Positions 8,976 to 46,516 of a stretch of DNA of 64,000 bases are shown here, in pieces. The position numbers were made by a program, and so were the translations under genes. The number at the start of each line of letters is the position of its first letter. Positions within the stretch are counted from its first letter, which is position 1. Origin of the DNA: Candidatus Omnitrophota bacterium (GTDB lineage Bacteria; Omnitrophota; Gorgyraeia; Ghiorseimicrobiales; Ghiorseimicrobiaceae); contig JAUXSB010000008.1 of NCBI GenBank assembly GCA_030681595.1, positions 89,587 through 153,586 of the forward strand, given 5' to 3'. Below the pieces are notes generated by a model. The model did not search any database, had not been told where the DNA came from, and was given only the letters and a program-made list of their open reading frames with translations.

Positions 8976-9878
8976 ATGCTTTTAAATAAAATTGGCGAGT
9001 TTGGCTTAATTGAACGGTTTAAGAAAATAATAAAAACAGATTCATCGGTTATTGAAGGAGTGGGGGATGATTGCGCTGTCTTAGAGTTTGATAGGCGTAA
9101 CTACCAGCTTTTTACCTGTGATATGATAGTGGAGGGTGTAGATTTTCTGCCGCAAACAGACCCTTACCTTATCGGTAGAAAGGCCGTAGCCATTTCTCTA
9201 AGCGATATTGCCGCCTGCGGCGGGCTGCCAAAGCATTGCCTCGTGTCCTTAGGTATACCTAAGAAAACATCAGTTGAATTTGTGGATAGATTTTTTAGGG
9301 GTATGCGTGATCTAGCCAAAAAATACAAAATAAATATCGTTGGAGGGGATTTAAGTAAGTCTCGGCAGTTGACCGTTGATGTGAGCATGCTGGGTTTAGT
9401 GGAGAAGAAAAATCTGGTATTACGCAGCGGCGCACAAAAGGGGCAATTAATTTTCGTAACCGGAAAGTTAGGCGGGTCATTAAATTCAGGCAGGCATTTG
9501 AAATTTATCCCAAGGATAATTGAGTCGCGCTATTTGGTAAATAACTTTAAGCCCGGAAGTATGATTGATATCTCTGACGGCTTAGCCGCAGACTTGGGTC
9601 ATATATTGGAGAGAAGTAAAAAAGGGGCAATTCTTTATGAAACGCTTATCCCTAAAAATAATAATGTTACGCTTGGCGAAGCTTTATTCTCCGGTGAAGA
9701 TTTTGAACTATTGTTTACTTTACCTTTAAAGCAGGCAATAAATTTTAATAAGGTAAGGCATCCGCAAAATATGCGGTTTTTTTTAATTGGAGAGATATCG
9801 GATTATCCCGGAATAACCCTTGTTGATAGAAAGTTTTGCTGCCGCAAGGTAAAAGATAGCGGGTTTCGGCATTTTTAG
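8976..9878 (+). CDS. thiL: thiamine-monophosphate kinase
   Basis: AIR-synthase-related fold with GDDCAV motif; 300 aa. Confidence 0.72.
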   Translation: MLLNKIGEFGLIERFKKIIKTDSSVIEGVGDDCAVLEFDRRNYQLFTCDMIVEGVDFLPQTDPYLIGRKAVAISLSDIAACGGLPKHCLVSLGIPKKTSVEFVDRFFRGMRDLAKKYKINIVGGDLSKSRQLTVDVSMLGLVEKKNLVLRSGAQKGQLIFVTGKLGGSLNSGRHLKFIPRIIESRYLVNNFKPGSMIDISDGLAADLGHILERSKKGAILYETLIPKNNNVTLGEALFSGEDFELLFTLPLKQAINFNKVRHPQNMRFFLIGEISDYPGITLVDRKFCCRKVKDSGFRHF

Positions 9879-9914
9879 CGATGGCATAAGTTACCCGGAT
9901 AAATTAATAGTTTT

Positions 9915-9988
9915 GCGCTCGTAGCTCAACTGGATAGAGCGTCAGTCTTCGGAACTGAATGTTGGGAGTTCGACTCTCCCCGAGCGCG
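9915..9988 (+). tRNA. tRNA-Arg (anticodon TCG)
   Basis: Cloverleaf readable: acceptor gcgctcg/cgagcgc, anticodon stem tcagt/actga with loop cttcgga, T-arm gggag-ttcgact-ctccc. Confidence 0.8.
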
Positions 9989-10010
9989 GTAGATAATTTC
10001 TGCCCTTGGA

Positions 10011-10062
10011 CAGTGGCTTTGGCAAATTGCGCGCCAAACCACTGCCTTCTGGCTTGGAGTTT
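10011..10062 (+). terminator. hairpin after tRNA-Arg (12-bp stem with one bulge) followed by a T-rich tract
   Basis: cagtggctttggc...gccaaaccactg, then cttctggcttggagtttt. Confidence 0.35.
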
Positions 10063-10073
10063 TAAATTATATC

Positions 10074-10103
10074 TTGACAGGGAAGTTTGATAAGGAATAA
10101 AAT
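10074..10103 (+). promoter_or_regulatory. sigma70-like promoter TTGACA-N17/18-TAAAAT giving a (near-)leaderless PilZ transcript
   Basis: TTGACA at 10074-10079, -10 box at 10098-10103, ATG at 10110. Confidence 0.45.
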
Positions 10104-10109
10104 AATTAT

Positions 10110-10469
10110 ATGAGCGAGCGGCGCCAGTGTATCAGGATAAGCAAGTCTTTAGAAATAGAGTACCGCACCGTAAACAGGTTAATGGGTAGCAGGTCGCGCA
10201 GTACTGATATTTCAAGGGCGGGAATACGTTTGCCTATCATAGAGAAGTTTGACCCGGGAACACTTTTAAAGTTGGATATCCGTTTTGTGGGCCTTAAGCC
10301 TATAAGCGTAGTCGGTGAAGTGGTCTGGATGAATGAAAAGAAAGACGGTGACTTCAGGTTTGAAATAGGGGTAAGGTTTATTAATATTACTCATTATGAC
10401 CGTGAAGCCCTAAACAGCGTTATTCAAAAATTGGAAGATAAGGGCTCTGGAGAAGTGCGTTGGCTTTAA
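10110..10469 (+). CDS. PilZ-domain c-di-GMP receptor
   Basis: RxxxR motif (SERRQCIR) and D/N-x-S-x-x-G motif (TDISRAGIRL). Confidence 0.6.
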   Translation: MSERRQCIRISKSLEIEYRTVNRLMGSRSRSTDISRAGIRLPIIEKFDPGTLLKLDIRFVGLKPISVVGEVVWMNEKKDGDFRFEIGVRFINITHYDREALNSVIQKLEDKGSGEVRWL

Positions 10470-11193: not shown

Positions 11194-11266
11194 GGGCCAT
11201 TAGCTCATCTGGTAGAGCAGGACACTCTTAATGTCAAGGTGGCAGGTTCGAGTCCTGCATGGCCCA
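11194..11266 (+). tRNA. tRNA-Lys (anticodon CTT)
   Basis: Acceptor gggccat/atggccc, D-arm gctc-atctggtaga-gagc, anticodon loop ctCTTaa, T-arm gcagg-ttcgagt-cctgc. Confidence 0.85.
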
Positions 11267-16691: not shown

Positions 16692-16780
16692 GGAGAGGTC
16701 GCATAGTTGGTTGAGTGCACCGGTCTTGAAAACCGGAAGGGGCCTAGTGTCCCTCGCGAGTTCGAATCTCGCCCTCTCCG
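16692..16780 (+). tRNA. tRNA-Ser (anticodon TGA), long variable arm
   Basis: Acceptor ggagagg/cctctcc, anticodon stem ccggt/accgg with loop ctTGAaa, long variable arm, T-arm gcgag-ttcgaat-ctcgc; 89 nt. Confidence 0.85.
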
Positions 16781-33513: not shown

Positions 33514-34068
33514 GTGCATGAGTCGTCCTATGTAGACAAAAATGTCTCAATAGGCAGAGGTACCAAAATCTGGCATTTCTGCCATATTTTGGAAGGTTCC
33601 GCTATAGGCACGAACTGTAAGATCGGGCAAAATGTCGTAATCGGGCCGAATGTAAGGATAGGTAATAATGTTAAAATACAAAATAATGTTTCTGTTTATC
33701 CGGGCGTAATATTGGAAGACGATGTATTTTGCGGCCCAGCGTGTGTTTTTACGAATGTTTTTAACCCTAGGGCCGACATAGCAAGGATGGATGAGATGCG
33801 CCATACTTTGGTAAAAAAAGGCGCTACTATTGGTGCAAATGCCACGATTGTCTGCGGCCATACTATAGGTAGATATGCCTTTATAGGCGCAGGAGCGGTA
33901 GTTACTAAAAATACCCCGGATTTCGCTCTGGTTTATGGTAATCCTGCCAGAGTGTCCGGCTATATGTGTGAGTGTGGCATAAAACTAAAATTTAATAAAT
34001 TAAGCGCTTATTGTGTTGCTTGCGGCAGGCGGTATAGGATTAAGAAAGGAATAGTAGAAAATGAGTAA
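33514..34068 (+). CDS. left-handed beta-helix (hexapeptide) sugar N-acetyltransferase (WbpD-like)
   Basis: Hexapeptide repeats ([25 protein letters not shown]). GTG 33514 chosen as start; track gave 33472, which overlaps the upstream gene. Confidence 0.65.
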
Positions 34069-35719
34069 AGCAAAGAAACTGCGGGAGTTGTTCGCTAATG
34101 AGAAAATAATACGCGTAGTTGGCGCGCATAACGCCTTAAGTGCGAAGTTAGTCGAAGGCGCGGGGTTTGATGCGGTCTGGTCAAGCGGTTTAGAGATTTC
34201 AACCAGCTTTGGCGTTCCGGACGCGAATATTCTTACTATGACTGATTTCCTGAATGTTTCTAGTATTATGAATGAGGCCGTCTCTATACCTATCGTTGCT
34301 GATTGTGATACGGGGTTTGGTAATTCTAATAACGTGATTCACATGGTTAAAAAGTATGAAGCCGCGGGGATAGCCGCGGTTTGCCTAGAGGACAAATATT
34401 TCCCTAAGGTTAATAGTTTTATTCCGGGAAGGCAGGAGTTGGCTTCGATTTCGGAATTTGTCGGTAAGATTTTGGCGGCCAAAAATGCCCAGCTTAGTAA
34501 GGATTTTATGGTTATCGCCAGGGTAGAAGCATTAATTGCCGGATGGGGAATGGATGAAGCATTGAGGAGGGCGGGGGCCTACGCGGATGCCGGAGCAGAC
34601 GCTATACTTATCCATAGTAAAAGTAAAACTATCGATGAAATAGCTGAGTTTGCAAAGCGTTGGAAAAATATGTCGCCGTTGGTTGTCGTGCCTACGACTT
34701 ACTGCGATGTCCATATTGACGATTTAAGCCGTATCAACATCAAGATGGTTATTTACGCCAATCAAGGAATAAGGGCATCGATAAAGTCGATGCAGGAGGT
34801 TCTTGGGCGAATACATAAGGATGGGACTAGTAGAAATATCGAAAACCATATCAGTACCATGGAAGAAGTTTTTTGCCTCCAGGGCATGCATAAAATGAAA
34901 GAAGATGAACTTGTTTATTCATCCACAAGCGATAAGATTGTAGCTGTTATACCTGCCGCGGGGGATCATTTAGAAGAATATTCGATGAAAGATATATCAA
35001 AAGATATCCCGATTACGATGCTGGACATTAATGGTAAATCGCTCTTGCAGCGCCAGGCCGATATATTAAACAGGTCAAAAATCTATGATATCAGAGTGAT
35101 CGGCGGGTATAAAAAAGAAAAAATAAGCGTCGAAGGCGTAAAAATTATACCTAATTTAGAATATGAAACGCGGGGAATGATCCATTCGATTATGTGCGCG
35201 TTGAAAGACATTAAAGATTCGGCGTTTATTATATACGGAGATACACTTTTTGACTATTTGCTTATCAGTAAGATATTGAATACCCGCCGTGATATAACAT
35301 TGGCAGTTGATACAAGTAATGTGATAGGTGATGCTGGAACGGGCAAGAAGCCGGAGCTTGTTTTGACTGATGGCCCGGTTAAATCCCGGAGAAGAAGTTT
35401 GCATCAGGATAGCCTGCATGCGGTGAAAGACATCGGAAGCTCTGTTAAATACGCAAAGGATAATTTACAATTTACCGGTATTATGTTTTTATCGCAAAAA
35501 GGCGTAGAGATATTCAAGAAGAATTACGCCAAATATGAAAAAGAATACGCGCGGTCAAAGTCGCCAGAGGCAGGTACCTTTTGCCGCATGAATCTAATCG
35601 ATTTTTTAAAAAAATTGCATGATTCAGGCTATGGAATTGACTGTCTGTATGTTAATTCCGGGTGGATGGAAATCCATTCGCTCGATGATTATAAGCTTGC
35701 CTGCTCAATTTTTAAATAA
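34061..35719 (+). CDS. ppm: phosphoenolpyruvate phosphomutase fused to a C-terminal nucleotidyltransferase domain
   Basis: ICL/PEP-mutase fold with the Ppm-diagnostic [10 protein letters not shown] (EDK-x5-NS) and [10 protein letters not shown]-terminal roughly 250 aa is NTP-transferase-like (IVAVIPAAG...). Confidence 0.78.
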
Positions 35720-35728
35720 AGAAATTTT

Positions 35729-36217
35729 ATGATTAGGGTAAAAGATTTTTGGGATTATTTAGCGGGAAAAAATTTTATTTTTTTTAGCGGGGTACCGTGC
35801 TCTATTTTTAAAACGGTGTTAGATGAGGCAATAAATAGCGAAATCATTACATATGTTCCGGCTGTGCGGGAAGATGTTGCCATGGGAGTAAGCTCCGGCG
35901 CGTATTTGGCGGGCAAGAAAAGCGGAATTTTAATTCAAAATTCAGGGTTGGGGCATATCGTAAATACCCTGACTTCGTTTAACCTTATTTACAAAATTCC
36001 CGTCCTCATGTTTATCAGTTGGCGCGGCTATATGGGTAAAGACGCTCCGGAGCATAAAATTATGGGTAGGAAAACGATAAGTTTGTTGAGTGGCCTTGAT
36101 ATACCGCATAGGGCGCTTAGCGTAGATTTTGACAAAGATTTGAACTGGGCAATCGGCATAATGGAAAAGAAACACATCCCCGTTGCGTTAATAGTTAAAG
36201 AGGGCCTATTTAAATGA
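35729..36217 (+). CDS. ppd: phosphonopyruvate decarboxylase, alpha (N-terminal ThDP pyrimidine-binding) subunit
   Basis: TPP_enzyme_N-like 162-aa protein directly after ppm, overlapping the beta subunit by 4 nt. Confidence 0.7.
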   Translation: MIRVKDFWDYLAGKNFIFFSGVPCSIFKTVLDEAINSEIITYVPAVREDVAMGVSSGAYLAGKKSGILIQNSGLGHIVNTLTSFNLIYKIPVLMFISWRGYMGKDAPEHKIMGRKTISLLSGLDIPHRALSVDFDKDLNWAIGIMEKKHIPVALIVKEGLFK

Positions 36218-36777
36218 CGACCGAGGATATCTTGAGATCAGTCTTAGCTTTTAAGGTTGATAACGCCGTATACCTTTTTACTAACGGCTATATCAGCCGG
36301 CAGGCCTACGGAATCGCCGATAGCGCTAAGAATTTTTATTTGATCGGGTCAATGGGGTTAGTTTCTTCCTTAGGGTTAGGAATCGCCATGAACTCTAAAA
36401 AGAAAGTTGTCGTTCTAGACGGAGATGGAAGCATCTTGATGAATATGGGCACAATGCCGCTTATCGGGTACATAGAACCGAATAATTTGATACATTTTAT
36501 TTTGGATAACTTTGCCTATCATAGTACCGGTAACCAGCCGACTATTTCGGAAAATATAGATTTTTTAAAGATGGCTTGCGCTTGTGGGTACAAAAAGGTG
36601 TTTCGTTTTAAAAAGATCAGTGAATTTAAGAGCGCGCTACCAGAAATATTTAATGCTTGCGGCCCGGTTTTTGTGCATATGGTTATCGGCAAGAATGATT
36701 CCAGCGCCGGCCCCCGGGTGGGCCTGGCTCCTCTTATGCTCGCGCGACGCATTAGGAAAACCATAAGGTCTCTTTAA
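36214..36777 (+). CDS. ppd: phosphonopyruvate decarboxylase, beta (ThDP-binding) subunit
   Basis: ThDP motif GDGSILMNMG...N. Confidence 0.72.
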   Translation: MTTEDILRSVLAFKVDNAVYLFTNGYISRQAYGIADSAKNFYLIGSMGLVSSLGLGIAMNSKKKVVVLDGDGSILMNMGTMPLIGYIEPNNLIHFILDNFAYHSTGNQPTISENIDFLKMACACGYKKVFRFKKISEFKSALPEIFNACGPVFVHMVIGKNDSSAGPRVGLAPLMLARRIRKTIRSL

Positions 36778-36779
36778 TT

Positions 36780-37934
36780 ATGTTTCATATTTTTACTGTT
36801 ATAGGCGCTCGGCCACAATTTGTTAAAGCGGCGGTAGTTTCTCTGGCAATAAAGAGGCTGGGGCGTGGTATTATTAAAGAGTCTATTATACACACGGGAC
36901 AGCATTACGACTATAGTATGAGCGGTATTTTTTTTAAAGAATTGAATATTCCCCGGCCGATAGATAATCTTAATGTTGGTTCTTTTAGCCATGGTAAGCA
37001 GACCGGTATTATGCTGGAGAGGCTGGAAAGGGTTTTTATTAGGGATCATCCTGATATGGTTTTAGTTTACGGCGATACAAATTCTACTTTGGCGGCAACG
37101 CTCGCCGCCGCTAAATTGCACATACCTGTCGCCCATGTGGAAGCCGGCATGCGCAGTTTCAATAAATTAATGCCGGAAGAACTTAACCGTGTAGCGGTAG
37201 ACCACATGAGCGATATTTTATTCTGTTCTTCGGATGCCTCGGTAAAGAATTTACGCCGGGAAGGAATACCGGATAAAAATAACGGTAAGTGCTGCGTTGT
37301 GTTAAATGTAGGCGATGTTATGGTTGATGCTTTAAAATTTTTTTATAGTTATGCAGAGAAGAGGTCAAAAATATTAGCTAAATTGAATCTTAAGCCCCGG
37401 AATTATTACTTAGTTACTGTGCATAGGGCAGAAAATACGGATAGTTTGGAAAAATTAAAAGTTATTTTTAAATCTTTGAATATCATCGCCGAGAAAGGCA
37501 GTTGTGTCGTGATTCCCATGCACCCGCGCACTCTCAGCGCGTTGAAAAGATTGGGGATGAAGAATTTTTCAAAAAATATGCGTATAATCGGACCTGTTTC
37601 TTATTTTGATATGCTGCTTTTGGAAAAAAACGCGGCAGGAATTTTTACTGATTCAGGCGGCGTGCAAAAAGAAGCCTATATTTTTAGAGTGCCTGCTATT
37701 ACATTGAGGACAGAGACAGAGTGGGTGGAGACCGTAAAGAGCGGATGGAATACCTTGGTGCCAATAAACGAAAAGGCGATTATGTTGGCTTTTGATAAGA
37801 TGGCGCGCTTTAAGCGGGATTCTTTGAGGGTCACAAGCAATATTTACGGTGACGGGAAGGCATCTGGCCGCATAGCCGGTTTTTTTCAAAAATATTTTAT
37901 AACAACAGTAAAAATTAAACCAGGACTCGGCTAA
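36780..37934 (+). CDS. UDP-N-acetylglucosamine 2-epimerase (WecB/WbpI/NeuC family)
   Basis: FHIFTVIGARPQFVKAA N-terminus, HVEAGMRS and PMHPRT motifs. Confidence 0.8.
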   Translation: MFHIFTVIGARPQFVKAAVVSLAIKRLGRGIIKESIIHTGQHYDYSMSGIFFKELNIPRPIDNLNVGSFSHGKQTGIMLERLERVFIRDHPDMVLVYGDTNSTLAATLAAAKLHIPVAHVEAGMRSFNKLMPEELNRVAVDHMSDILFCSSDASVKNLRREGIPDKNNGKCCVVLNVGDVMVDALKFFYSYAEKRSKILAKLNLKPRNYYLVTVHRAENTDSLEKLKVIFKSLNIIAEKGSCVVIPMHPRTLSALKRLGMKNFSKNMRIIGPVSYFDMLLLEKNAAGIFTDSGGVQKEAYIFRVPAITLRTETEWVETVKSGWNTLVPINEKAIMLAFDKMARFKRDSLRVTSNIYGDGKASGRIAGFFQKYFITTVKIKPGLG

Positions 37935-38110
37935 TGAGGTTTGCCAAAGAATGTTAAGCCTAAAAGAAATCAGGGCAAAATACCAGTCTCCTTGGTATGA
38001 GAAGAAGAGAATTAACAATACGATTTATTTTTTTTGTACCGCCGTAGGCAGCTTAAGGCATGGTTTTGATCCCGCCCTTATCTTAATACTCGGTTTTTGC
38101 GCTTCTCCGG
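37792..38110. repeat. segmental duplication copy A (3' end of the 2-epimerase gene + intergenic + 5' part of the CDP-alcohol phosphatidyltransferase gene; carries an internal 281-bp deletion)
   Basis: 37792-38020 is about 97% identical to 39444-39673. 38021-38110 aligns to 39955-40046. Confidence 0.85.
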
Positions 38111-38211
38111 GGGTTATTTTTTACGGCCTACTTTCTTATTTATTTAAGATGGAAGAACTTAAGTTTGTATTATCATTAATTCGAAAAAAACCATCAGAAG
38201 TTGCAGTTTAA
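37951..38211 (+). pseudogene. truncated remnant of the CDP-alcohol phosphatidyltransferase gene
   Basis: MLSLKEIRAKYQSPWYEKKRINN is joined directly to IYFFCTAVGSLRHGFDPALILILGFCAS (residues about 1-23 and 120-150 of the intact copy at 39604). Confidence 0.7.
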
Positions 38212-38255
38212 AATAAACTGATCGGCTTTACGCATAAATTTTAACAGGACATGAG

Positions 38256-39368
38256 ATGCATTCACGAATAAAAATTTTGATATTTTCATTCCTTCCGCTT
38301 ATACTGTTGCTATTTTTCGGCGAGTTATTTTGCAGGGTGAGGTCCTATGTTCGAGACAAAGATGCCTCTTATTTGCTTACGCCGTTAATCAGGAAAGAGA
38401 AGTCCGTAGAGTATCAATTCCAGGCTAGCCATTTTTTTAAAGGCAGCCCTGATTGGTATTATAAGTTAAAACCCGCTTCTTACTCTCCTCATAAAATTTC
38501 TGGTTATTGCGGCCGCTATACAATAAATTCGCTTGGATTCCGCGGCAAGGAATTCGATCCGTTCAATAAGGATGGGAAGCTGAGGATATTTTGTGTCGGC
38601 GAATCCAGTACCTTTTGTGCCGAGTCGTCCGATGCGGACACCTGGCCGGCGCGGCTAGAATACTACTTGGACAAAAATAAAGAAGATAGTTATGAGGTAA
38701 TAAACAGCGGTTTCCCCGGATATTACAGCTGGAATTATATCAATCTTATCCGCCTTGAGTTAATAAAATATAAACCTGATATGTTGATTATTTACGCAGG
38801 GATAAATGATTTATACGGCAGCATTGAGAAGAAGAAAAAAATAATTAACAGGATGGCAGATTATATCCATGCTTTATTATATTATCGCGGGTCTATGTTT
38901 TATGCCTTGTTTTCAGAAAAGGTGAAAGTTGCGACAAATTCTCACAGACCAATAAATATTGATACGATTGATAGTATCGGAACTTATATTAATAATATTG
39001 AAGGTATAATTAAAATCTGTAAAGATAACGGTATAAGGGTTATATTGGTGAGGCAGTTGCTTTATGCGCCTAATGAAATATTCGCGCGCGATAATTTAAC
39101 ACTGGAAGGGGTTAGGAAGGCTTTAGAGGCAATGCCGTCAGATAGCCATGGCGTGAACTATTCTACTTATCTGGAATTCTATCGCCATTATGAATTAATG
39201 GAATCTTTGGCAAAGTTATCCAGTAAATACACCATAACCACATTAGATTTTAGAGGAGAATTTTTAAAGGTTTTGGCTAATGATAAGGGAAAGCTTTTCT
39301 TTGATATGGTACACCTGACTCTTTATGGGAATGACCTTTTAGCCAAATTAATATCAGGCTTCATTTAG
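38256..39368 (+). CDS. SGNH/GDSL-family hydrolase with N-terminal membrane anchor
   Basis: Block I FCVGESST, block III GINDL, block V DMVHLT. Inserted between the two duplication copies. Confidence 0.6.
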   Translation: MHSRIKILIFSFLPLILLLFFGELFCRVRSYVRDKDASYLLTPLIRKEKSVEYQFQASHFFKGSPDWYYKLKPASYSPHKISGYCGRYTINSLGFRGKEFDPFNKDGKLRIFCVGESSTFCAESSDADTWPARLEYYLDKNKEDSYEVINSGFPGYYSWNYINLIRLELIKYKPDMLIIYAGINDLYGSIEKKKKIINRMADYIHALLYYRGSMFYALFSEKVKVATNSHRPINIDTIDSIGTYINNIEGIIKICKDNGIRVILVRQLLYAPNEIFARDNLTLEGVRKALEAMPSDSHGVNYSTYLEFYRHYELMESLAKLSSKYTITTLDFRGEFLKVLANDKGKLFFDMVHLTLYGNDLLAKLISGFI

Positions 39369-39443
39369 AAAAGCAGTATTTCAAAAACGATAAACAATAA
39401 ATGAGCATAAAACAGAAAATATTTATTTTTTTAATCCTTGGTT

Positions 39444-40046
39444 TTTGATAAAATGGCGCGCTTTAAGCGGGATTCTTTGAGGGTCACAAGCAATATTTAC
39501 GGTGACGGGAAGGCATCTGGCCGCATAGCCGGTTTTTTTAAAAAATATTTTATAACAACAGTAAAAATTAAACCAGGACTCTGCTAATGGGGTTTGCCAA
39601 AGAATGTTAAGCCTAAAAGAAATCAGGGAAAAATACCAGTCTCCTTGGTATGAGAAGAAGAGAATTAACAATATTTTCTCGCGGTATTTCTATACTGCCA
39701 TAGCAACTGTATTGGTCAAGTTTATTTTGCCTACAAAGATTACAGCTAATCAGATTACTGTAAGTTGGGTTATCCTGGGTTTTTTAGGGTGTTTGCTATT
39801 TACCGCGGGAAATTATTGGGTTAGTATCTTGGCCGTTTTGGTTATACAGTTGCATGTTGTTTTAGATTATGTGGATGGCCCGATTGCAAGGGCGCGCAAT
39901 AAAAAAAGCTTCAAAGGCATCTATATTGAACGCGTAGGGCATGATCTCATCTATACGATTTATTTCTTTTGTATCGCCGTAGGCAGCTTAAAGCATGGTT
40001 TTGATCCCACCCTTATTTTAATACTCGGTTTTTGCGCTTCGGTGGG
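39444..40046. repeat. segmental duplication copy B (intact)
   Basis: Carries a 44-codon remnant of the epimerase 3' end (39444-39580) upstream of the intact phosphatidyltransferase gene. Confidence 0.85.
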
Positions 40047-40395
40047 AGGTTTTTTTTATAAGCATGCCAGGCGGGCAAAGATTTATTGCTCGCTTACCTC
40101 AAAAAAAAATACGCCTGAGAATAACGTTGCCTTAGGAGGGCAGGCCGGAAATATGAAGGTTTCCGGTAAGAAGAAGCCAAGTTTTGCGCGTAGAGTCTAT
40201 CGAAGTTCGTTGATTATATGGGAACCTGTTTTTTTTACCGCGGTTTCATTGGTGCTGGCAATATTTGACCGCTTATATTTCTTACCCATATTTTATGGAT
40301 TGACGTATCCTTTGCATTTTGTGCTTTCGTATGTTTACCAGGCGCGTATGGCGGATAAAGAGGTTGATAAATTAACGGATATGACGGGTGATTAA
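39604..40395 (+). CDS. CDP-alcohol phosphatidyltransferase-family membrane protein
   Basis: DYVDGPIARARNKKSFKGIYIERVGHD (D-x2-DG-x2-AR...G...D-like motif) and about 6 TM segments. Confidence 0.62.
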   Translation: MLSLKEIREKYQSPWYEKKRINNIFSRYFYTAIATVLVKFILPTKITANQITVSWVILGFLGCLLFTAGNYWVSILAVLVIQLHVVLDYVDGPIARARNKKSFKGIYIERVGHDLIYTIYFFCIAVGSLKHGFDPTLILILGFCASVGGFFYKHARRAKIYCSLTSKKNTPENNVALGGQAGNMKVSGKKKPSFARRVYRSSLIIWEPVFFTAVSLVLAIFDRLYFLPIFYGLTYPLHFVLSYVYQARMADKEVDKLTDMTGD

Positions 40396-40401
40396 ATTAT
40401 T

Positions 40402-41151
40402 ATGAGAGCGATAATTATTGCCGCTGGAAGGGCAAAGCGCATGGGGCATTTATCGGATAGCCTACCGAAGTGCCTGCTTCAGGTTAACGGTAAAACCGTA
40501 TTAGCGCATCAAATCGATGCCTTAAGGGCGTCTAAGATCAATGATATTGTAGTAATTAAGGGTTACAAAAAAGACCTTATTGATTATCCCGAAATACGTT
40601 ATCGTATCAACGATAATTATATGAACAATAATATTTTGAATTCTTTATTTTGTGCCGAAGAGGATATTAGTGGAGATGTCTTAATTACATACGGCGATGT
40701 GTTGTTTAGGCCAACTATAGTCAGTAAATTATTCAATACAGAGGGCGATTTTGTGATAGCTGTTGAGGATGGCTGGCGCAGCCGCTATCATGAAAGGGAT
40801 GCCCACCCTCTAAGTGAGGCGGAAAATGTTGTTATGGACAGCCAGAGGCGCTTAATTGAAATCGGCAAAATTATGAATGGTAAAGATAGCGCTAATGCCG
40901 AGTTTATAGGTATGCTGAAGTTGAGTGCTTCCGGCGCTCAGATACTAAAAAAGGTATTCCGTGAGGTTAAACTAAAACTTTCCGGCAAACCGTTTCAGCG
41001 CGCTGTTACGTTTGAGCAGGCTTATTTGACTGATATGCTTCAGGAGCTGGCTGACAGGAATTATGTATTGCCCTGCGTTGACGCCGCGGGAGATTGGGCA
41101 GAAATTGATACTCCCCAGGATTATCAGTTTGCCCAGAAAATGTTCGCATAG
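40402..41151 (+). CDS. sugar-phosphate/phosphonate nucleotidyltransferase (LicC/PntC-like NTP_transferase)
   Basis: MRAIIIAAGRAKRMG N-terminal Rossmann-like signature. Confidence 0.6.
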   Translation: MRAIIIAAGRAKRMGHLSDSLPKCLLQVNGKTVLAHQIDALRASKINDIVVIKGYKKDLIDYPEIRYRINDNYMNNNILNSLFCAEEDISGDVLITYGDVLFRPTIVSKLFNTEGDFVIAVEDGWRSRYHERDAHPLSEAENVVMDSQRRLIEIGKIMNGKDSANAEFIGMLKLSASGAQILKKVFREVKLKLSGKPFQRAVTFEQAYLTDMLQELADRNYVLPCVDAAGDWAEIDTPQDYQFAQKMFA

Positions 41152-42027
41152 ATGAATAACTATACGGCATTTGCGCTTATACTTGTTTCGGCATTAATTC
41201 ATCCTTTTTGGAATATATTGCTCAAGGCAAGTAGAGATAAAGTAATTTTTTATTTTAATATACATTTATTTTTCACGGTATTTTTTAGTTTTATCCTTTT
41301 TATATACCCGGTAACGTCTTTGGACGGCGCTGCCTGGTTTCTGGTTTTATTATCCAGCGTCGCGCATTTTTTTTATCAGTTGTTTCTTTGTAAGGCATAC
41401 AAATTAGGGGATTTATCGGTAACTTATCCTATTGTCAGGTCAGCGCCTCTATTTGTGGCAGCTATGGGGTTCTTTTTTCTTGGCGAGAAGCCATCATTGA
41501 TTGCCGTATTCGGGATTGCGCTTACAGTAATCGGAGCCCAGATGATTAACCAAAAGGAGCTGTCGTTAAGGCATTTTATTAATTCATGGAGGCATTCCGA
41601 AAAGCGGATTATTTTAGCGGCTGTTCTTACAGCTATGTTTTCCGCGGTATATTCCGTTATAGATAAGAAAGGCGTATTGAAGGTAGAGCCGGTTTTGTTC
41701 TTTTATCTTTTTTTTGCTTTTTCAGGGGCGATGTTTGGTATATACCTATTTTTTTCTAAAAAAAGACGGCATATTTATAGAGATTATACCAATAGGGATA
41801 AATACAAGATTGCCTTAGCGGCAATATTAGAATTTTCTTCCTATCTTTTAATACTATATGCCTTCAGGGTTCTTAATGTGGCGCATGTTGTAGCGATACG
41901 CCAAATAAGCGTGGTATTCGGTGCTATCTTAGGAATATTCATCTTAAAGGAGAGATGTGGAAGGATAAGGATATTGGCGTCTTTCGTTATATGCCTGGGA
42001 ATTTATTTTTTGGTCGCGTATAAATAA
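41152..42027 (+). CDS. EamA/DMT-superfamily transporter
   Basis: 10 predicted TM segments arranged as two 5-TM repeats. Confidence 0.6.
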   Translation: MNNYTAFALILVSALIHPFWNILLKASRDKVIFYFNIHLFFTVFFSFILFIYPVTSLDGAAWFLVLLSSVAHFFYQLFLCKAYKLGDLSVTYPIVRSAPLFVAAMGFFFLGEKPSLIAVFGIALTVIGAQMINQKELSLRHFINSWRHSEKRIILAAVLTAMFSAVYSVIDKKGVLKVEPVLFFYLFFAFSGAMFGIYLFFSKKRRHIYRDYTNRDKYKIALAAILEFSSYLLILYAFRVLNVAHVVAIRQISVVFGAILGIFILKERCGRIRILASFVICLGIYFLVAYK

Positions 42028-42059
42028 AATAATTTTTTAGAAAATAAGGAGATCACGCA

Positions 42060-43280
42060 ATGGAACACAATGGTAATAAAAGAGAGAACAAGGAAAAAAT
42101 TGCCTTGTTTCCCGGTATGGCGGGTTTGACCAGAGATATTATTGAGCGTATGAAATCCGAAGGGGTCAAGCTTCTTTCTTTGGATATTATGGTTACCCAG
42201 AAATGTAATTTTTGTTGCAGCTATTGTTACGCCGAGGGGTCTCCTGCGAAAACTAATGAGCTTAGTATGAAAGAGGCAATGGCAATCGTTGATGAAGCCA
42301 TCGGGTTAGGCGTGAGGATTATTAATATGCAGGGCGGAGAGCCGCTTATGTGGCATCCCGCGGATTGGAAGGGTAAAAGCGGAGAAGCGCTATTTCATCT
42401 TATGGAATATATCCGCGGCTCTTTTGCTAAGAAAGGCCTGCCGCTTGACCTGGTAAGCTTTACAGACGTGGCTTTAATTACTGAGGAAAAGGCGCGTAGG
42501 CTTGCCGGTTTAGGTGTCGCGCTCTGTTGTAAGCTTGATTCGCTTGATCAGGATATTCAGGATAAGTTACTGGGGACGCCTGGTGGCGCAAAAAAGATGA
42601 TGCAGGGTTTTAACAATTTAATCATGGCTGGCTACGGATCGAAAGATATGCCGACGATTTCTACGAATACCGTAGTCACAACTTTAAACTACGGCGTAAT
42701 TAAAGATGTCTTTAGATGGTCCAGAAGTCATGGGTTTCGCCCTTTTGTGATTCCGGTGCATGTTCACGGAAGGGCTAAAGAGAATAGCGATATTATGCTT
42801 TCGGGTAAAGAAACAAAAAGCACGCTTAGCCCCAAAGATATAAAAACATTATTTGAAGAATTGGCAAAGATAGACAGGGAGGAATTCGGGATAAATTGGG
42901 AACCGCTCAGTCCCTGGATAGAAAATAAGGCCTGTTCTCGCCATTTAGGAGGCGTGCATATTAGGGCAGATGGTGTTGTTGTTCCTTGCTCCGAGGCGCC
43001 TGACCGCTGGGCGTTGGGGGATATCCGTAAGCAGTCTCTAAGTGAGATAGTTCTTTCAGAAAAAGTTGAGAAATTCAGGCAGGTCTATAGCCAGCTGCAT
43101 GAGCATTCCAAATGTTCTCCTAATAATTGCCCTTTAAGTGCTGCGAAGAAATGCTATGGTTGCAGGACCAGGGCTTATGACGAGTCCGCATTTGACGAGA
43201 ACGGTAATTTTGATGCCGCCAGATTAAATCCTGACAGTTTTTTTGCCGGTGATCCGGCTTGTTGGCGCGGCACGGAGTAA
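42060..43280 (+). CDS. radical SAM enzyme with C-terminal SPASM/twitch-like Cys-rich domain
   Basis: CNFCCSYC (Cx3Cx2C). C-terminal CSEAP...CSPNNCPLSAAKKCYGCRT. Confidence 0.62.
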   Translation: MEHNGNKRENKEKIALFPGMAGLTRDIIERMKSEGVKLLSLDIMVTQKCNFCCSYCYAEGSPAKTNELSMKEAMAIVDEAIGLGVRIINMQGGEPLMWHPADWKGKSGEALFHLMEYIRGSFAKKGLPLDLVSFTDVALITEEKARRLAGLGVALCCKLDSLDQDIQDKLLGTPGGAKKMMQGFNNLIMAGYGSKDMPTISTNTVVTTLNYGVIKDVFRWSRSHGFRPFVIPVHVHGRAKENSDIMLSGKETKSTLSPKDIKTLFEELAKIDREEFGINWEPLSPWIENKACSRHLGGVHIRADGVVVPCSEAPDRWALGDIRKQSLSEIVLSEKVEKFRQVYSQLHEHSKCSPNNCPLSAAKKCYGCRTRAYDESAFDENGNFDAARLNPDSFFAGDPACWRGTE

Positions 43281-43297
43281 TTTAAAATACCTAATAT

Positions 43298-44659
43298 ATG
43301 GCAAAAGTTACTGTATATATAACAGCGCATAATTACGGCAAGTACGTTAAAAAGGCTATAGATAGCGTTTTGAGCCAGAAATTTAATGACTGGGAATTGA
43401 TTGTTATTAATGATGGCTCAACCGATAACACTAAAGAGATCCTCAAAAAATATAGTTCACATGGCAAGATAAAAGTTATACATCAAGAAAAAAAAGGTTT
43501 AGCCGTAAGTAATAATATCGCGCTGAGGCTTTCGCGCGGCGAATATATCATGCGTCTTGACGCGGATGACTACCTTGATGAAAATGCGCTGTTAGTCCTG
43601 TCTAATATTTTAGATAGCCATCGCGATGTGGGCTTGGTCTATCCTGACTATTATAGGGTAGATGAAAAGGGTGAGATTATTGATATAGAAAGAAGGAAAA
43701 AGGTCGGCAAAGATGCAAAATTGCTGGATCTGCCAGCGCATGGGGCATGCACGATGATACGTAAATCATGCCTTTTGGATTTAGGCGGCTACGATGAATC
43801 GCTTTCGTGCCAGGATGGATATGACCTATGGATAAGGTTTATAAACAGATTTAAGCCGTATAACGTGAATATTCCATTATTTTATTACCGGCAGCATCCC
43901 TTAAGCCTTACGCGCGACCGGGAGAAAATACTTCTCACCAGGCATGGCATAAAGAGGAATTTCGTAAGGAAGAATTTTCTAAAAATCCCCAAAGTTTTGG
44001 CAATAATACCAATAAGAAAAGAATCGGATGCAAGCACGGCTTCCGCTTTAAAGGAATTTACAGGCAGGCCATTAATTGATTTTACCATTTTGGAAGCGAA
44101 AAAAACAAAGCTGCTTGATAAAATAGTAGTTAGTTCTGACGATGACCGGATACTTAAATACGCGGCTAAATTTAGCGGTATATCATGTGTTAGGCGCCCT
44201 GAGGAATTATCTTTACCGAATTCGCGTATAGAGCCGACGGTTGATTATGTGCTTAAAGCGTTAAGAAGAGAAGCGGGTTATAAACCGGACGCGGTTATGT
44301 TGTTATATATCCATACGCCGTTAAGAAAATATATTCATATTGAGAAAGCCATTGATACAATGCTTATTTTTGGCGTAGACAGCGTGGTATCGGTTTGCGA
44401 AGATTATAGTTTTTATTATCGCCACAACAAAAATGGGCTTACGCCGTTTTCGCGCAAGCGGCTTTTGCGCCTTGAACGGGAAGCGCTCTATAAAGAAAAT
44501 TGCGCTTTATATCTTTCGCGTGTATCTTCGATTACGAAAGATAATTTTTTGGGAAAGCGGATTGGGCATATTACGATGCTGCCGCAGGAAAGTATAAAGT
44601 TAGACAATGAATTTGATTTTTGGCTGGCGGAAAAGATCGCTAAAGAATGGAAAAACTAA
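43298..44659 (+). CDS. bifunctional GT2 glycosyltransferase / CMP-sugar synthetase-like (CTP_transf_3) protein
   Basis: N-terminal GT2 (VINDGSTDNT, RLDADD). C-terminal NeuA/KdsB-like domain (LAIIPIRKESDAST...VVSSDDDRI). Confidence 0.62.
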   Translation: MAKVTVYITAHNYGKYVKKAIDSVLSQKFNDWELIVINDGSTDNTKEILKKYSSHGKIKVIHQEKKGLAVSNNIALRLSRGEYIMRLDADDYLDENALLVLSNILDSHRDVGLVYPDYYRVDEKGEIIDIERRKKVGKDAKLLDLPAHGACTMIRKSCLLDLGGYDESLSCQDGYDLWIRFINRFKPYNVNIPLFYYRQHPLSLTRDREKILLTRHGIKRNFVRKNFLKIPKVLAIIPIRKESDASTASALKEFTGRPLIDFTILEAKKTKLLDKIVVSSDDDRILKYAAKFSGISCVRRPEELSLPNSRIEPTVDYVLKALRREAGYKPDAVMLLYIHTPLRKYIHIEKAIDTMLIFGVDSVVSVCEDYSFYYRHNKNGLTPFSRKRLLRLEREALYKENCALYLSRVSSITKDNFLGKRIGHITMLPQESIKLDNEFDFWLAEKIAKEWKN

Positions 44660-45813
44660 AATTAATTTCGAAACGCATCAAAAATCCTATCGGATGCCTG
44701 CCGCTTCGTAAATACGCAAGTAGTGCAAAAAGCGTATTAATAATTACGGATGATAATACCAGGTTTACTCCGTTAAAAAGCATATTGCCGATAGTATTAA
44801 ATGAATTAAGGGACGCGGGGATAACCAATAAACAGCTAAAGATATTAATTGCATCCGGCACGCATCGGCCGATGACAAAAAAAGAGATTAGAGATAAATT
44901 CGGCTCTGCGCTCGCAGCCAATTACAAAATCTATAATCATTCTTGGAATAAAGAATCTTCCTTATCAAGGATCAGCGAAAAAATCAGAGGCAGGCGTATT
45001 TGCATTAACCGCCTGGCAAAGGAGGCGGATTTTATAGTAGGCATAGGAAGCATTGTGCCGCATGCTACGACAGGGTTTTCAGGCGGCGGTAAAATAATCT
45101 TGCCCGGTATTTGCGGCAAGGAAACAGTTGAAGACATGCATTGGGAGGCTTTAAATTTCCAGATGAAAGAAATCTTAGGGGTTTATGATAACCCTATGCG
45201 CAGGAGGGTGGATTCCGTAGCAGAAAAATCAGGGCTTAAGTTTATAGTTAACGCGATTATGGATTGTAAGGGCAGGCTTGTAGATGTGGTAGCCGGCGAT
45301 CCGGTTAAGGCGCATAAAAAGGGAGTAGAGCTCGCAAAAGCTATATTTGGCCTGCCTATGGATAGCCTAGCCGATATCGTAATAGCGGATGCAAAGCCTA
45401 TGGATATAGATTTACGTCAGGCAATTAAAGCGGTTGCTTCAAGCGAACTTGCTGTTAAAGACGGCGGAGTTATTATACTTTTGGCGAGATGCCCTGAAGG
45501 GGCGGCACCGCAGTTTCCGGAATTTGAAAAATACGGATTTAGCGACCCTGATAAATTAAAAGTTATGGCAGAAAAAGGAAAAATAAATAGATTAGCCGCT
45601 TATACATTGATTGCCATAGGGAGAATCATAAAGTATAAAGCGAAGGTTATTTTAGTCTCAAAAGGGATACCTCGCGGGGCTGCCGAAAAGTTAGGATTTC
45701 TCTGGGCGAGATCTTTGGAAGCCGCCTTGAGAAAAGCAAAAGATTTAAGCGGACAGAATGCGAGAGTTGTTTTTTTGAAGAGGGCCTGCGAAGTATTACC
45801 GTTGATGAATTAG
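44647..45813 (+). CDS. LarA-like (DUF2088, lactate-racemase N-terminal-domain family) protein
   Basis: Whole-protein pattern resembles nickel-pincer-nucleotide-dependent LarA homologs, with a GFSGGGKIILPG region. Assigned by pattern memory only. Confidence 0.45.
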   Translation: MEKLKLISKRIKNPIGCLPLRKYASSAKSVLIITDDNTRFTPLKSILPIVLNELRDAGITNKQLKILIASGTHRPMTKKEIRDKFGSALAANYKIYNHSWNKESSLSRISEKIRGRRICINRLAKEADFIVGIGSIVPHATTGFSGGGKIILPGICGKETVEDMHWEALNFQMKEILGVYDNPMRRRVDSVAEKSGLKFIVNAIMDCKGRLVDVVAGDPVKAHKKGVELAKAIFGLPMDSLADIVIADAKPMDIDLRQAIKAVASSELAVKDGGVIILLARCPEGAAPQFPEFEKYGFSDPDKLKVMAEKGKINRLAAYTLIAIGRIIKYKAKVILVSKGIPRGAAEKLGFLWARSLEAALRKAKDLSGQNARVVFLKRACEVLPLMN

Positions 45814-45841: not shown

Positions 45842-46516
45842 TTGTCTGAAAGAGTCGGTAGGTTAATAAAAAAAACCATCGGCAAGCTACCTTTTTTTAT
45901 CAGGAAAATATATACAAAAAGGAAGAAGCGCGAAGAGTTGTTTGACTATTGGACTTCTCCTAATGATGGTAACAATAATCCTACAGAATATTTAAAATGT
46001 AGGGAGCGTAGCGCCTTTTTGCTGAATTTGATTACAAAATATCTTGACAAAAAAGACAGAGTTCTAGAAATCGGATGCAATGTGGGACGTAATCTCAATG
46101 AGTTATTTTGCGCAGGTTTTAACAATCTATCCGGTGTTGAAATAAACAAGAACGCAATAGAAATAATGAAAACGGTATATCCAAATATGGCGCAGGTAAT
46201 TAAGATTTATCAGGGACCTGTTGAGAATTTTATTGGAAGTTTCGAAGATGATTCTTTTGACTCTGTATATACGATGGCCGTCTTGGAGCACATACATACG
46301 GATAGCGAATTCATATTTTCGCATATGGCACGAATAGCCAGGAAAATTTTAGTTACGATTGAAGATGAAAGAGGAGTATCCTGGCGGCATTTTCCGCGGA
46401 ACTATAAGAAGGTCTTTGAGGATTTAGGAATGAGGCAGATAGAGGAGATTAGTTTGAAGCAAACCAAAGTCGAAGGACTGGATAAAAAATTTTTTGCCAG
46501 AGTTTTTAAAAAATGA
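45842..46516 (+). CDS. class I SAM-dependent methyltransferase
   Basis: VLEIGCNVGRNL (motif I). TTG start behind RBS tggagg. Confidence 0.55.
   Translation: MSERVGRLIKKTIGKLPFFIRKIYTKRKKREELFDYWTSPNDGNNNPTEYLKCRERSAFLLNLITKYLDKKDRVLEIGCNVGRNLNELFCAGFNNLSGVEINKNAIEIMKTVYPNMAQVIKIYQGPVENFIGSFEDDSFDSVYTMAVLEHIHTDSEFIFSHMARIARKILVTIEDERGVSWRHFPRNYKKVFEDLGMRQIEEISLKQTKVEGLDKKFFARVFKK

Follow-up and report, generated by a model that had tools for sequence, protein, structure and literature searches.

A probable duplicative insertion of an SGNH hydrolase gene at an epimerase–phosphatidyltransferase boundary in a Candidatus Omnitrophota surface-glycan cluster

RESULTS AND DISCUSSION

Organization of the locus

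The Candidatus Omnitrophota genome analysed here contains a nonulosonic-acid/phosphonate surface-glycan cluster, to which a WecB-type epimerase gene and a CDP-alcohol phosphatidyltransferase (PT) gene belong. The region around these two genes is organized as follows, with positions counted in the window, by which we mean the whole 64 kb stretch of DNA that was analysed.

36780..37934, + strand: non-hydrolysing UDP-GlcNAc 2-epimerase gene of the WecB type, intact, 384 aa, MDP1853033.1 (Pfam Epimerase_2, 338 bits)
37785..38124, + strand: copy A of the repeated unit, 340 nt after the loss of 282 of its 622 nt, made up of the epimerase tail, a 16-nt spacer, PT codons 1-23 and PT codons 118-152
37951..38211, + strand: 86-aa chimeric ORF, a probable PT remnant, MDP1853034.1, annotated as 'hypothetical protein'
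38018..38020, + strand: deletion junction of copy A, a 282-nt in-frame loss with microhomology ATA
38125..39437, + strand: unique insert, 1313 nt, missing from all relatives
38256..39368, + strand: SGNH/GDSL hydrolase gene, intact, 370 aa, MDP1853035.1 (PF13472, 41.3 bits against a cut-off of 32.9)
39438..40059, + strand: copy B of the repeated unit, full length at 622 nt
39438..39587, + strand: dead epimerase tail, the last 50 codons without the upstream gene body
39604..40395, + strand: gene of the CDP-alcohol phosphatidyltransferase family, intact, 263 aa, MDP1853036.1 (PF01066, 32.8 bits; cut-off 22)

The intact epimerase also matches TIGR00236 wecB (295 bits, cut-off 210), and its last 50 codons lie inside repeat copy A. 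The intact PT is 92 % identical to its orthologue in the relative L002 and retains its native upstream 166 nt. Within the PT signature D-x2-D-G-x2-A-R-x8-G-x3-D-x3-D, residues D88, D91, G92, A95, R96 and G105 are present and invariant, and the final two Asp positions are represented by E/D109 and H113-D114 throughout the family of this protein. Promoter and terminator counts equal the shuffled expectation, and a weak hairpin with a T-run, located in the epimerase tail of the repeat, does not exceed what is expected by chance. The known RNAs in the window are three tRNAs, all far from this region.

A direct-repeat search of the 64 kb window returned only two repeats of at least 40 nt, D1 and D2, and their being the sole ones excludes chance as an explanation. 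D1 is 236 nt long and 97 % identical (37785-38020 repeated at 39438-39673); D2 is 107 nt long (38018-38124 repeated at 39953-40059), of which 88 nt are well conserved, the repeat search giving 90 % identity overall. D1 and D2 are parts of a single 622-nt unit, which occurs on either side of the unique 1313-nt insert and is composed of the last 50 epimerase codons (49 aa and the stop), the 16-nt spacer and PT codons 1-152. Copy A ends in a 3′-truncated gene and copy B begins with a 5′-truncated one, the homology stopping at 38124/38125 in copy A and at 40059/40060 in copy B. At the base level the copies differ at 6 of 233 nt in D1 and at five positions in the first 88 nt of D2, the last 19 nt of D2 hold a cluster of mismatches, and the longest identical run is 87 nt. 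The divergence of D1 does not differ significantly from that of D2 (Fisher p = 0.18), and a reading of gene conversion from heterogeneous divergence was dropped for this reason. The deletion in copy A removes the equivalent of 39671-39952, exactly 94 codons in frame, at a 3-nt ATA microhomology.

A sequence-only reading of this stretch had already described a duplication bracketing the SGNH gene, which the repeat search and base-level comparison bear out, and had placed the SGNH gene and the 86-aa remnant correctly. Its repeat of about 230 bp at about 97 % identity agrees with D1, whereas the roughly 45 epimerase codons that it assigned to the repeat number 50; a deletion in the upstream copy is present, although it measures 282 nt, in frame, and not 281 bp. 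The further match of about 90 bp corresponds to the 88 well-conserved nt of the fuller D2 block, and the dead epimerase tail of copy B is real but has 50 codons, counting the stop, rather than 44.

The insert and its SGNH hydrolase

The SGNH protein has an N-terminal transmembrane helix (residues 7-25) that would anchor it in the membrane, with flanking charges that are ambiguous as to topology, and it keeps the catalytic set Ser117, Gly152, Asn184, Asp350 and His353, distributed over blocks I (GESS, with S117), II (G152), III (GIND, with N184) and V (D350-x-x-H353). Among 18 SGNH homologues, S117, N184, D350 and H353 never vary and G152 hardly does (conserved in at least 90 %). The AlphaFold model (pLDDT 82) adopts a flavodoxin-like SGNH fold, and Foldseek matches it with probability 1.0 to many SGNH esterases at target-normalised TM-scores of about 0.6-0.79; the structural matches include acetyl-xylan esterases, TesA and PatB, the best of them being carbohydrate acetyl-esterases. 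Because of this fold and these best matches, a glycan O-acyl esterase is a reasonable guess for the predicted product, and relatives of the SGNH family are situated in glycan clusters. The protein shares its fold, the conserved Ser-Asp-His residues and the oxyanion Gly/Asn blocks with the acetyl-xylan esterases 7ddy and Axe2 and with PatB (7tjb), but is only 12-18 % identical to them in sequence and differs in its extra N-terminal transmembrane helix, a β-rich module (about 90 residues) and an inserted helical segment. No partner acyltransferase (AT3/MBOAT) adjoins the gene.

The nearest SGNH homologue is 47-49 % identical, and none above 50 % identity was found among about 15 billion proteins. 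A recent intragenomic paralogue is thus ruled out as the source, there being no protein of 50-100 % identity from any source, the source metagenome-assembled genome (MAG) included. The gene has a G+C content of 0.376 (window mean 0.409, sd 0.026), and neither its GC3 nor its codon usage stands out within the window, so that no independent hint of a foreign source comes from composition. For the stretches of 131 nt and 69 nt that flank the gene within the insert, neither 100 retrieved loci nor the remainder of the window contained a match, and no plasmid, phage or viral relative was found that might represent the donor: a tblastn search with the SGNH protein gave one weak partial plasmid match and zero phage matches, and an IMG/VR scan gave zero. 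An IS element or transposon was rejected, as the insert ends carry no inverted repeats, there is no transposase, SGNH is the sole gene and the duplication is 622 nt long. An integron gene cassette was likewise rejected, the 69-nt downstream flank having no inverted repeat and so no attC-like palindrome.

The empty site in related lineages

The relative L002 (87-89 % nt identity) is collinear with the window over 29084-51077, and contigs L101-L105 from Hainich groundwater are 88-93 % identical to the window at the nucleotide level. In both of these sister lineages the epimerase and PT genes are adjacent, and there is neither an SGNH gene nor a repeat; the same holds for the more distant L097. 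The equivalent of copy B (39438-40059) is contiguous in L002, at about 9848-10456, and no pre-existing repeats are present at the relatives' empty sites. Since L002, the Hainich lineage and L097 are all without the SGNH gene, the insertion is derived and lineage-specific. That insertion or recombination introduced the gene had been proposed from the sequence, with its presence or absence in relatives as a check, and the empty site supports an insertion in this lineage.

At 328 comparable sites, copies A and B share 10 derived states relative to both outgroups, with six private changes in A and eight in B, and the duplication is therefore younger than the lineage split. The event had been called recent, which holds in a relative sense only, the copies being about 3.4 % apart and having had time enough for a 282-nt deletion. 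No strain closer than the sister lineages was present in the genome and metagenome contig collections searched. The cluster as a whole is a slot-wise mosaic, in which the genes that occupy the slots between shared core genes vary from one lineage to the next.

Mode of insertion

The flanking direct repeats together correspond to one contiguous fragment of the uninterrupted target, as in the products of Campbell-type integration, and the layout matches a one-step duplicative insertion. We consider it probable (at about 0.62) that a 1313-nt segment with the SGNH gene entered the boundary between the wecB-type epimerase and PT genes in this lineage by duplicative insertion, with duplication of a 622-nt target. 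The event would have doubled 50 epimerase codons, the spacer and 152 PT codons, and with the target duplicated the epimerase would stay intact through copy A and the PT, with its native upstream region, through copy B. A single step would require two illegitimate joints only, at 38124/38125 and 39437/39438. One option is a circle carrying the SGNH segment and the 622-nt target fragment, integrated by one homologous crossover; another is a replication template switch out to the SGNH donor and then back to an upstream position. No donor sequence was found by which to check the joints for microhomology or to tell the two options apart, and as the insert has no replication, recombinase or mobility function, the circular intermediate is hypothetical. 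The SGNH enzyme may add or remove an O-acyl group on the glycan of the cluster, and the gene is presumably kept by selection, since a crossover between the two 236-nt repeats would excise it cleanly.

A history in two steps, with a tandem duplication across the epimerase/PT boundary coming first and the SGNH segment later being inserted into, or replacing, the dispensable junction, would produce an identical end structure, although we think it unlikely. Bacterial genomes often undergo tandem duplication, which transformation can set off (PMC3784515), and where the genes of an operon are so closely packed, only at the redundant junction would an insertion do no harm, so that survivorship could explain the coincidence. 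Such a history, however, needs three illegitimate joints as against two and an unstable duplication that persists until a second rare event, and no relative carries the duplication without the insert.

Fate of the redundant copies

Both redundant halves are in decay, the truncated PT having shed 282 nt that include its active-site motif and the epimerase tail having gathered substitutions. Of the four epimerase-tail changes, three arose in copy B, where the tail is dead, whereas the PT N-terminus changed in copy A, where the PT is dead. The 86-aa ORF consists of PT residues 1-23, PT residues 118-152 and 29 insert-derived codons; PT residues 23-116 are missing, and with them the whole D88/D91/G92/A95/R96/G105 family motif, and the product has no Pfam match. 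Because the 282-nt loss takes out the entire catalytic motif, the sequence supports the view, already taken in the sequence-only reading, that this ORF is a dead PT remnant, whatever its entry in the public record. That the ORF has been kept as a small membrane protein, perhaps to modulate the PT or to aid SGNH translation, seems to us improbable. The start codon and an ancestral GAGG Shine-Dalgarno-like motif are kept, the deletion is in frame, there is one strongly hydrophobic segment and NCBI treats the ORF as a protein; nevertheless, a deletion has a one-in-three chance of an in-frame outcome, this copy has acquired non-synonymous changes and, towards its 3′ end, a dense run of substitutions, and the ORF has no homologue as such (it forms a cluster of one) and no catalytic motif.

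We regard as very improbable a history in which the common ancestor of the whole clade already had the SGNH gene and the repeats, the relatives having lost both by repeat recombination and gene conversion making the repeats look young. A crossover anywhere in D1 would leave a scar-free empty site, so that an empty site alone is no proof of absence, but independent losses would be required in L002, the Hainich lineage and L097, as would a conversion that homogenised the two copies at the 10 shared derived sites, and the search of about 15 billion proteins gave no SGNH homologue of more than 50 % identity.

Support for the assembly

Contigs of an independent assembly (Logan, k=31) cover 37991-39482 (L001) and 39644-42537 (L107), both at 100 % identity to the window, and each starts or stops at a distance of exactly one 31-mer from the base at which the copies first differ, as the repeats predict. 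They span the deletion junction, the SGNH gene and the left edge of copy B, and the end of D1 into the PT interior; the outer links, from the epimerase body to copy A and from 39483-39643, in the first ~200 nt of copy B, to the contigs on either side, come from the MAG assembly alone. An empty-site variant in the same sample was sought through the downstream gene, and only the expected contig was returned. That strains from one sample were assembled into a chimera, or that the repeats were mis-joined, is hardly credible. Although the MAG was built from short reads and the Logan graph (k=31) is interrupted in this repeat-bearing region, about a dozen substitutions and the 282-nt deletion separate the copies, so that no identical repeat has been collapsed or doubled, the 87-nt run is shorter than normal reads and large assembler k-mers, and the independent contigs, which largely answer the earlier worry about an artefact, cross the key junctions without a mismatch.

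Comparison with known systems

In Campbell-type integration, for example in insertion-duplication mutagenesis, a circular molecule with an internal target fragment enters by a single crossover. The locus resembles such products in that the insert lies between direct repeats that equal one target fragment, with 3′-truncated and 5′-truncated copies, and in being reversible by repeat recombination. It differs in that the insert is without vector, replicon or recombinase and no circular intermediate has been observed, and, unlike the fragments used in insertion mutagenesis, the fragment in the window straddles a gene boundary and neither neighbour is disrupted. Capsule and O-antigen loci gain tailoring genes at gene boundaries, leaving truncated copies of neighbours behind, and gene remnants likewise lie beside the acquired gene here; in contrast to those remnants, the event can be traced to the exact base at each of its two boundaries, and sister lineages supply the empty site. 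Transformation of Streptococcus pneumoniae triggers merodiploids with unstable duplications of 100-900 kb bounded by IS-derived repeats (Johnston et al., 2013; PMC3784515). Those too are partial duplications made by recombination, in which an intact and an altered copy coexist and the spare is free to decay (PMC3784515), whereas the duplication in the window is 0.6 kb long, had no prior repeats at the empty site and has persisted to about 3 % divergence.

The repeats had also been called a recombination hotspot, an inference that their length and the 87-nt longest identical run would suggest; no recombinant between them was seen. That the SGNH gene and the repeats constitute a self-contained, homology-guided cassette is improbable. 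If it were true, recombination in D1 would excise a 1653-nt circle containing the SGNH gene and one repeat and restore a perfect epimerase–PT junction, and the circle could enter any related genome by a single crossover. The outcome would be recombinase-free on-off switching and sharing of glycan O-acylation among Omnitrophota, and such a cassette would explain the slot-wise mosaic of the cluster.

Significance

The locus offers a rare footprint of gene gain in a surface-glycan cluster that is legible base by base, with its joints, duplicated target, decaying halves and empty site, and it flags an 86-aa "hypothetical protein" of the public record as a gene remnant. The event is a clean yet ordinary kind of cluster gene gain in an uncultured Omnitrophota lineage, and it shows a tightly packed operon gaining a tailoring gene without harm to either neighbour.

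Structure of the duplication

The SGNH hydrolase gene lies between two copies of a duplicated unit of 622 nt, which comprises the last 50 codons of a WecB-type UDP-GlcNAc 2-epimerase gene, a 16-nt spacer and the first 152 codons of a CDP-alcohol phosphatidyltransferase (PT) gene. A search for repeats in 36000-41500, and then in the entire window, returned just two families of direct repeats of at least 40 nt, and this search and the base-level comparison show the duplication flanking the SGNH gene to be real and unique in the window. The first block (37785-38020, matching 39438-39673) is 236 nt long and 97 % identical, and the second pairs 38018-38123 with 39953-40058. Compared base by base, the copies differ at six of 233 nt in the first block and at five of the first 88 nt of the second, the last 19 nt of which form a dense patch of differences; the longest identical run is 87 nt, and the copies cease to match at 38124|38125 (upstream copy, A) and 40059|40060 (downstream copy, B). 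The two blocks are a single unit, split in copy A by an in-frame deletion of 282 nt (94 codons, equivalent to 39671-39952) with a 3-nt microhomology, ATA, at its junction. The sequence-only reading, that a duplication brackets the SGNH gene and leaves a PT pseudogene, is thus confirmed as a finding and supported in its interpretation, with small corrections: it had put the deletion at 281 nt and the epimerase part at about 45 codons, and was otherwise right in its description.

Features of the site
36780-37934, epimerase gene, complete, its 3′ end supplied by copy A
37785-38124, copy A, the 622-nt unit minus 282 nt
37951-38211, PT remnant ORF (86 aa), a dead PT fragment
38125-39437, unique insert of 1313 nt between the copies, with one gene, 131 nt upstream of it and 69 nt downstream
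38256-39368, SGNH hydrolase gene, intact
39438-40059, copy B, the full 622-nt unit
39438-39587, epimerase tail, a dead fragment
39604-40395, PT gene, complete, its 5′ end and upstream region supplied by copy B

Assembly support and the empty site

The Logan k=31 assembly of SRR13727519 provides an independent check. Two of its contigs, L001 (37991-39482) and L107 (39644-42537), are identical to the window; L001 starts one 31-mer ahead of 38021, the first A-specific base past the shared stretch, and ends one 31-mer past the B-specific base 39452, and L107 starts one 31-mer ahead of 39674, the first B-specific base. The reads therefore hold both continuations past the shared 44-mer, as well as the deletion junction and the joint of the SGNH flank with the orphan epimerase tail. 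A maximum identical run of 87 nt can be resolved by ordinary reads; the outer links of the repeat region come from the MAG assembly.

Comparison with relatives reveals the empty site. Window positions 29084-51077 align collinearly with the Logan contig L002 at 87-89 % nucleotide identity, and in L002 the epimerase gene adjoins the PT gene with a 20-nt spacer; the alignment stops at 38020 and restarts at 39440, so that L002 lacks the insert and the second copy and nothing else there. For five contigs from Hainich groundwater (L101-L105), identity is 88 % over the epimerase gene and 92-93 % downstream, and four of them (L101-L103 and L105) also have the empty site, L104 beginning too near the PT gene to show the epimerase. 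No repeats are present at the empty site in these close relatives. Among contigs whose PT is 50-55 % identical, epimerase and PT genes are adjacent in L097 and separated by a Wzx-like flippase gene in L006 and L098.

Proteins encoded at the site

The four proteins of the site are MDP1853033-MDP1853036 in the NCBI MAG of Candidatus Omnitrophota, where the contig that encodes them is 190,713 nt long. The epimerase is of the non-hydrolysing WecB type (Pfam Epimerase_2, 338 bits; TIGR00236, 295 bits against a cut-off of 210). The intact PT exceeds the PF01066 threshold (32.8 bits against 22) and comes from a small family, some 23 clusters in the database, whose CDP-alcohol signature has D88, D91, G92, A95, R96 and G105 as invariant residues. 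In all 20 aligned members E/D109 and H113-D114 replace the last two aspartates of the signature; the best NCBIfam matches are inositol-phosphate transferases, scoring under the cut-offs of those models. The 86-aa ORF joins PT residues 1-23 and 118-152 to 29 codons from the insert; lacking residues 23-116, it has lost the whole catalytic signature, and a profile search gives it no Pfam match, in agreement with its earlier description as a pseudogene and chimeric remnant. In the public record it is a 'hypothetical protein' (MDP1853034.1, locus tag Q8L26_02350), not a pseudogene. The ancestral Shine-Dalgarno-like GAGG 5′ of the PT start is kept before the remnant (37937) and has become GGGG before the functional gene (39590).

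Direction, age and mechanism

With L002 and L102 as outgroups, copies A and B have ten derived states in common over 328 comparable sites, with six changes private to A and eight to B, indicating that the duplication arose on the window's own branch. When four outgroups are used (L002, L101, L102 and L105), the dead copy B carries three of the epimerase tail's four changes and the dead copy A the only one in the PT N-terminus; the second block has two on A and three on B. Synonymous divergence between the window and L002 is 0.27-0.76 per gene (dN/dS 0.05-0.18), against about 2 % divergence of the dead halves; the event, previously called recent, is thus young relative to the lineage split, though not brand new. 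About five A-specific substitutions are packed into the 19 nt at 38106-38124, beside the right joint (post-hoc binomial P, 3e-4), and might reflect error-prone synthesis at the joint or plain decay of a variable codon stretch.

On either side of the insert stands a copy of a single contiguous target fragment, cut at its 3′ side on the left and at its 5′ side on the right. One homologous crossover with a circular molecule bearing the target fragment would yield this topology. Replication that changed template to a donor and then returned to a position farther upstream would give an identical outcome; by either route two illegitimate joints would suffice. Tandem duplication followed by insertion of the SGNH gene at its junction is possible, and transformation can trigger duplications (PMC3784515), but this order requires three joints, as well as an unstable intermediate that lasted a long time, and is less economical. 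A mobile element is rejected, the insert having neither mobility function nor inverted repeat, as is a plasmid, phage or viral origin, since searches of such sequences gave no relative beyond one weak partial plasmid hit. Neither flank of the insert has a match among the 100 loci compared or elsewhere in the window. Codon usage of the SGNH gene is typical of the window, and the donor was probably similar in base composition.

The surrounding glycan cluster

Fusion proteins encoded in the cluster are PEP mutase/nucleotidyltransferase, GT2/cytidylyltransferase and NeuB/cytidylyltransferase. Its other products, in addition to the epimerase and PT, are a split phosphonopyruvate decarboxylase, a nucleotidyltransferase, an EamA transporter, a radical SAM enzyme and a LarA homologue. 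The PEP mutase/MobA-like fusion and the decarboxylase, as two ORFs of 162 and 187 aa, occupy 34061-36777, with no obvious next-step phosphonate aminotransferase or dehydrogenase nearby; this module is limited to the window clade (the window and L002, with its 3′ end visible in L102). Compared with L002, L097, L006 and L098, 33472-48135 is a mosaic in which variable slots separate conserved core genes (hexapeptide transferase, epimerase, PT, GT2/cytidylyltransferase, LarA-like and NeuB/cytidylyltransferase). The slot 5′ of the epimerase holds the phosphonate module, an NTP-transferase or a methyltransferase; that between epimerase and PT is empty or holds the Wzx flippase or SGNH gene; and that 3′ of PT holds nucleotidyltransferase-EamA-radical SAM, a deacetylase and formyltransferase, or nothing. 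A second presence/absence difference, without flanking repeats, is a SAM-methyltransferase gene (45842-46516, 224 aa) between the LarA-like and NeuB-like genes, which matches TIGR03587 (pseudaminic-acid-associated methylase) weakly and is missing from the close L002 and present in the distant L006 (65 % aa identity). The homologue of LarA, a nickel-pincer racemase, in this nonulosonic-acid cluster (44647-45813) is kept in L002, L097 and L006 of the relatives examined, not in L098, and may be a sugar-acid epimerase. Three tRNA genes (9915-9988, 11194-11266 and 16692-16780) account for every Rfam match in the window.

The SGNH hydrolase and its retention

The SGNH protein exceeds the PF13472 threshold (41 bits against 33) and keeps all four blocks: GESS with S117, G152, GIND with N184, and D350-x-x-H353. 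S117, N184, D350 and H353 do not vary among 18 homologues, and G152 is nearly invariant. It has an N-terminal hydrophobic helix (residues 7-25), and its AlphaFold model (pLDDT 82) has structural matches, at 12-18 % identity, to acetyl-xylan esterases, GDSL lipases, TesA and PatB; the protein collection searched holds no relative at 50-100 % identity. Homologues in other genomes sit among glycosyltransferases, and our best guess is that the protein may add or remove O-acyl groups on the cluster's glycan. A crossover anywhere in the 236-nt block would remove the gene and recreate the ancestral junction. That the gene has survived about 2-3 % divergence may be an indirect sign that it is useful. 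The event is of a known type, its traces are well preserved here, and its general interest is modest.
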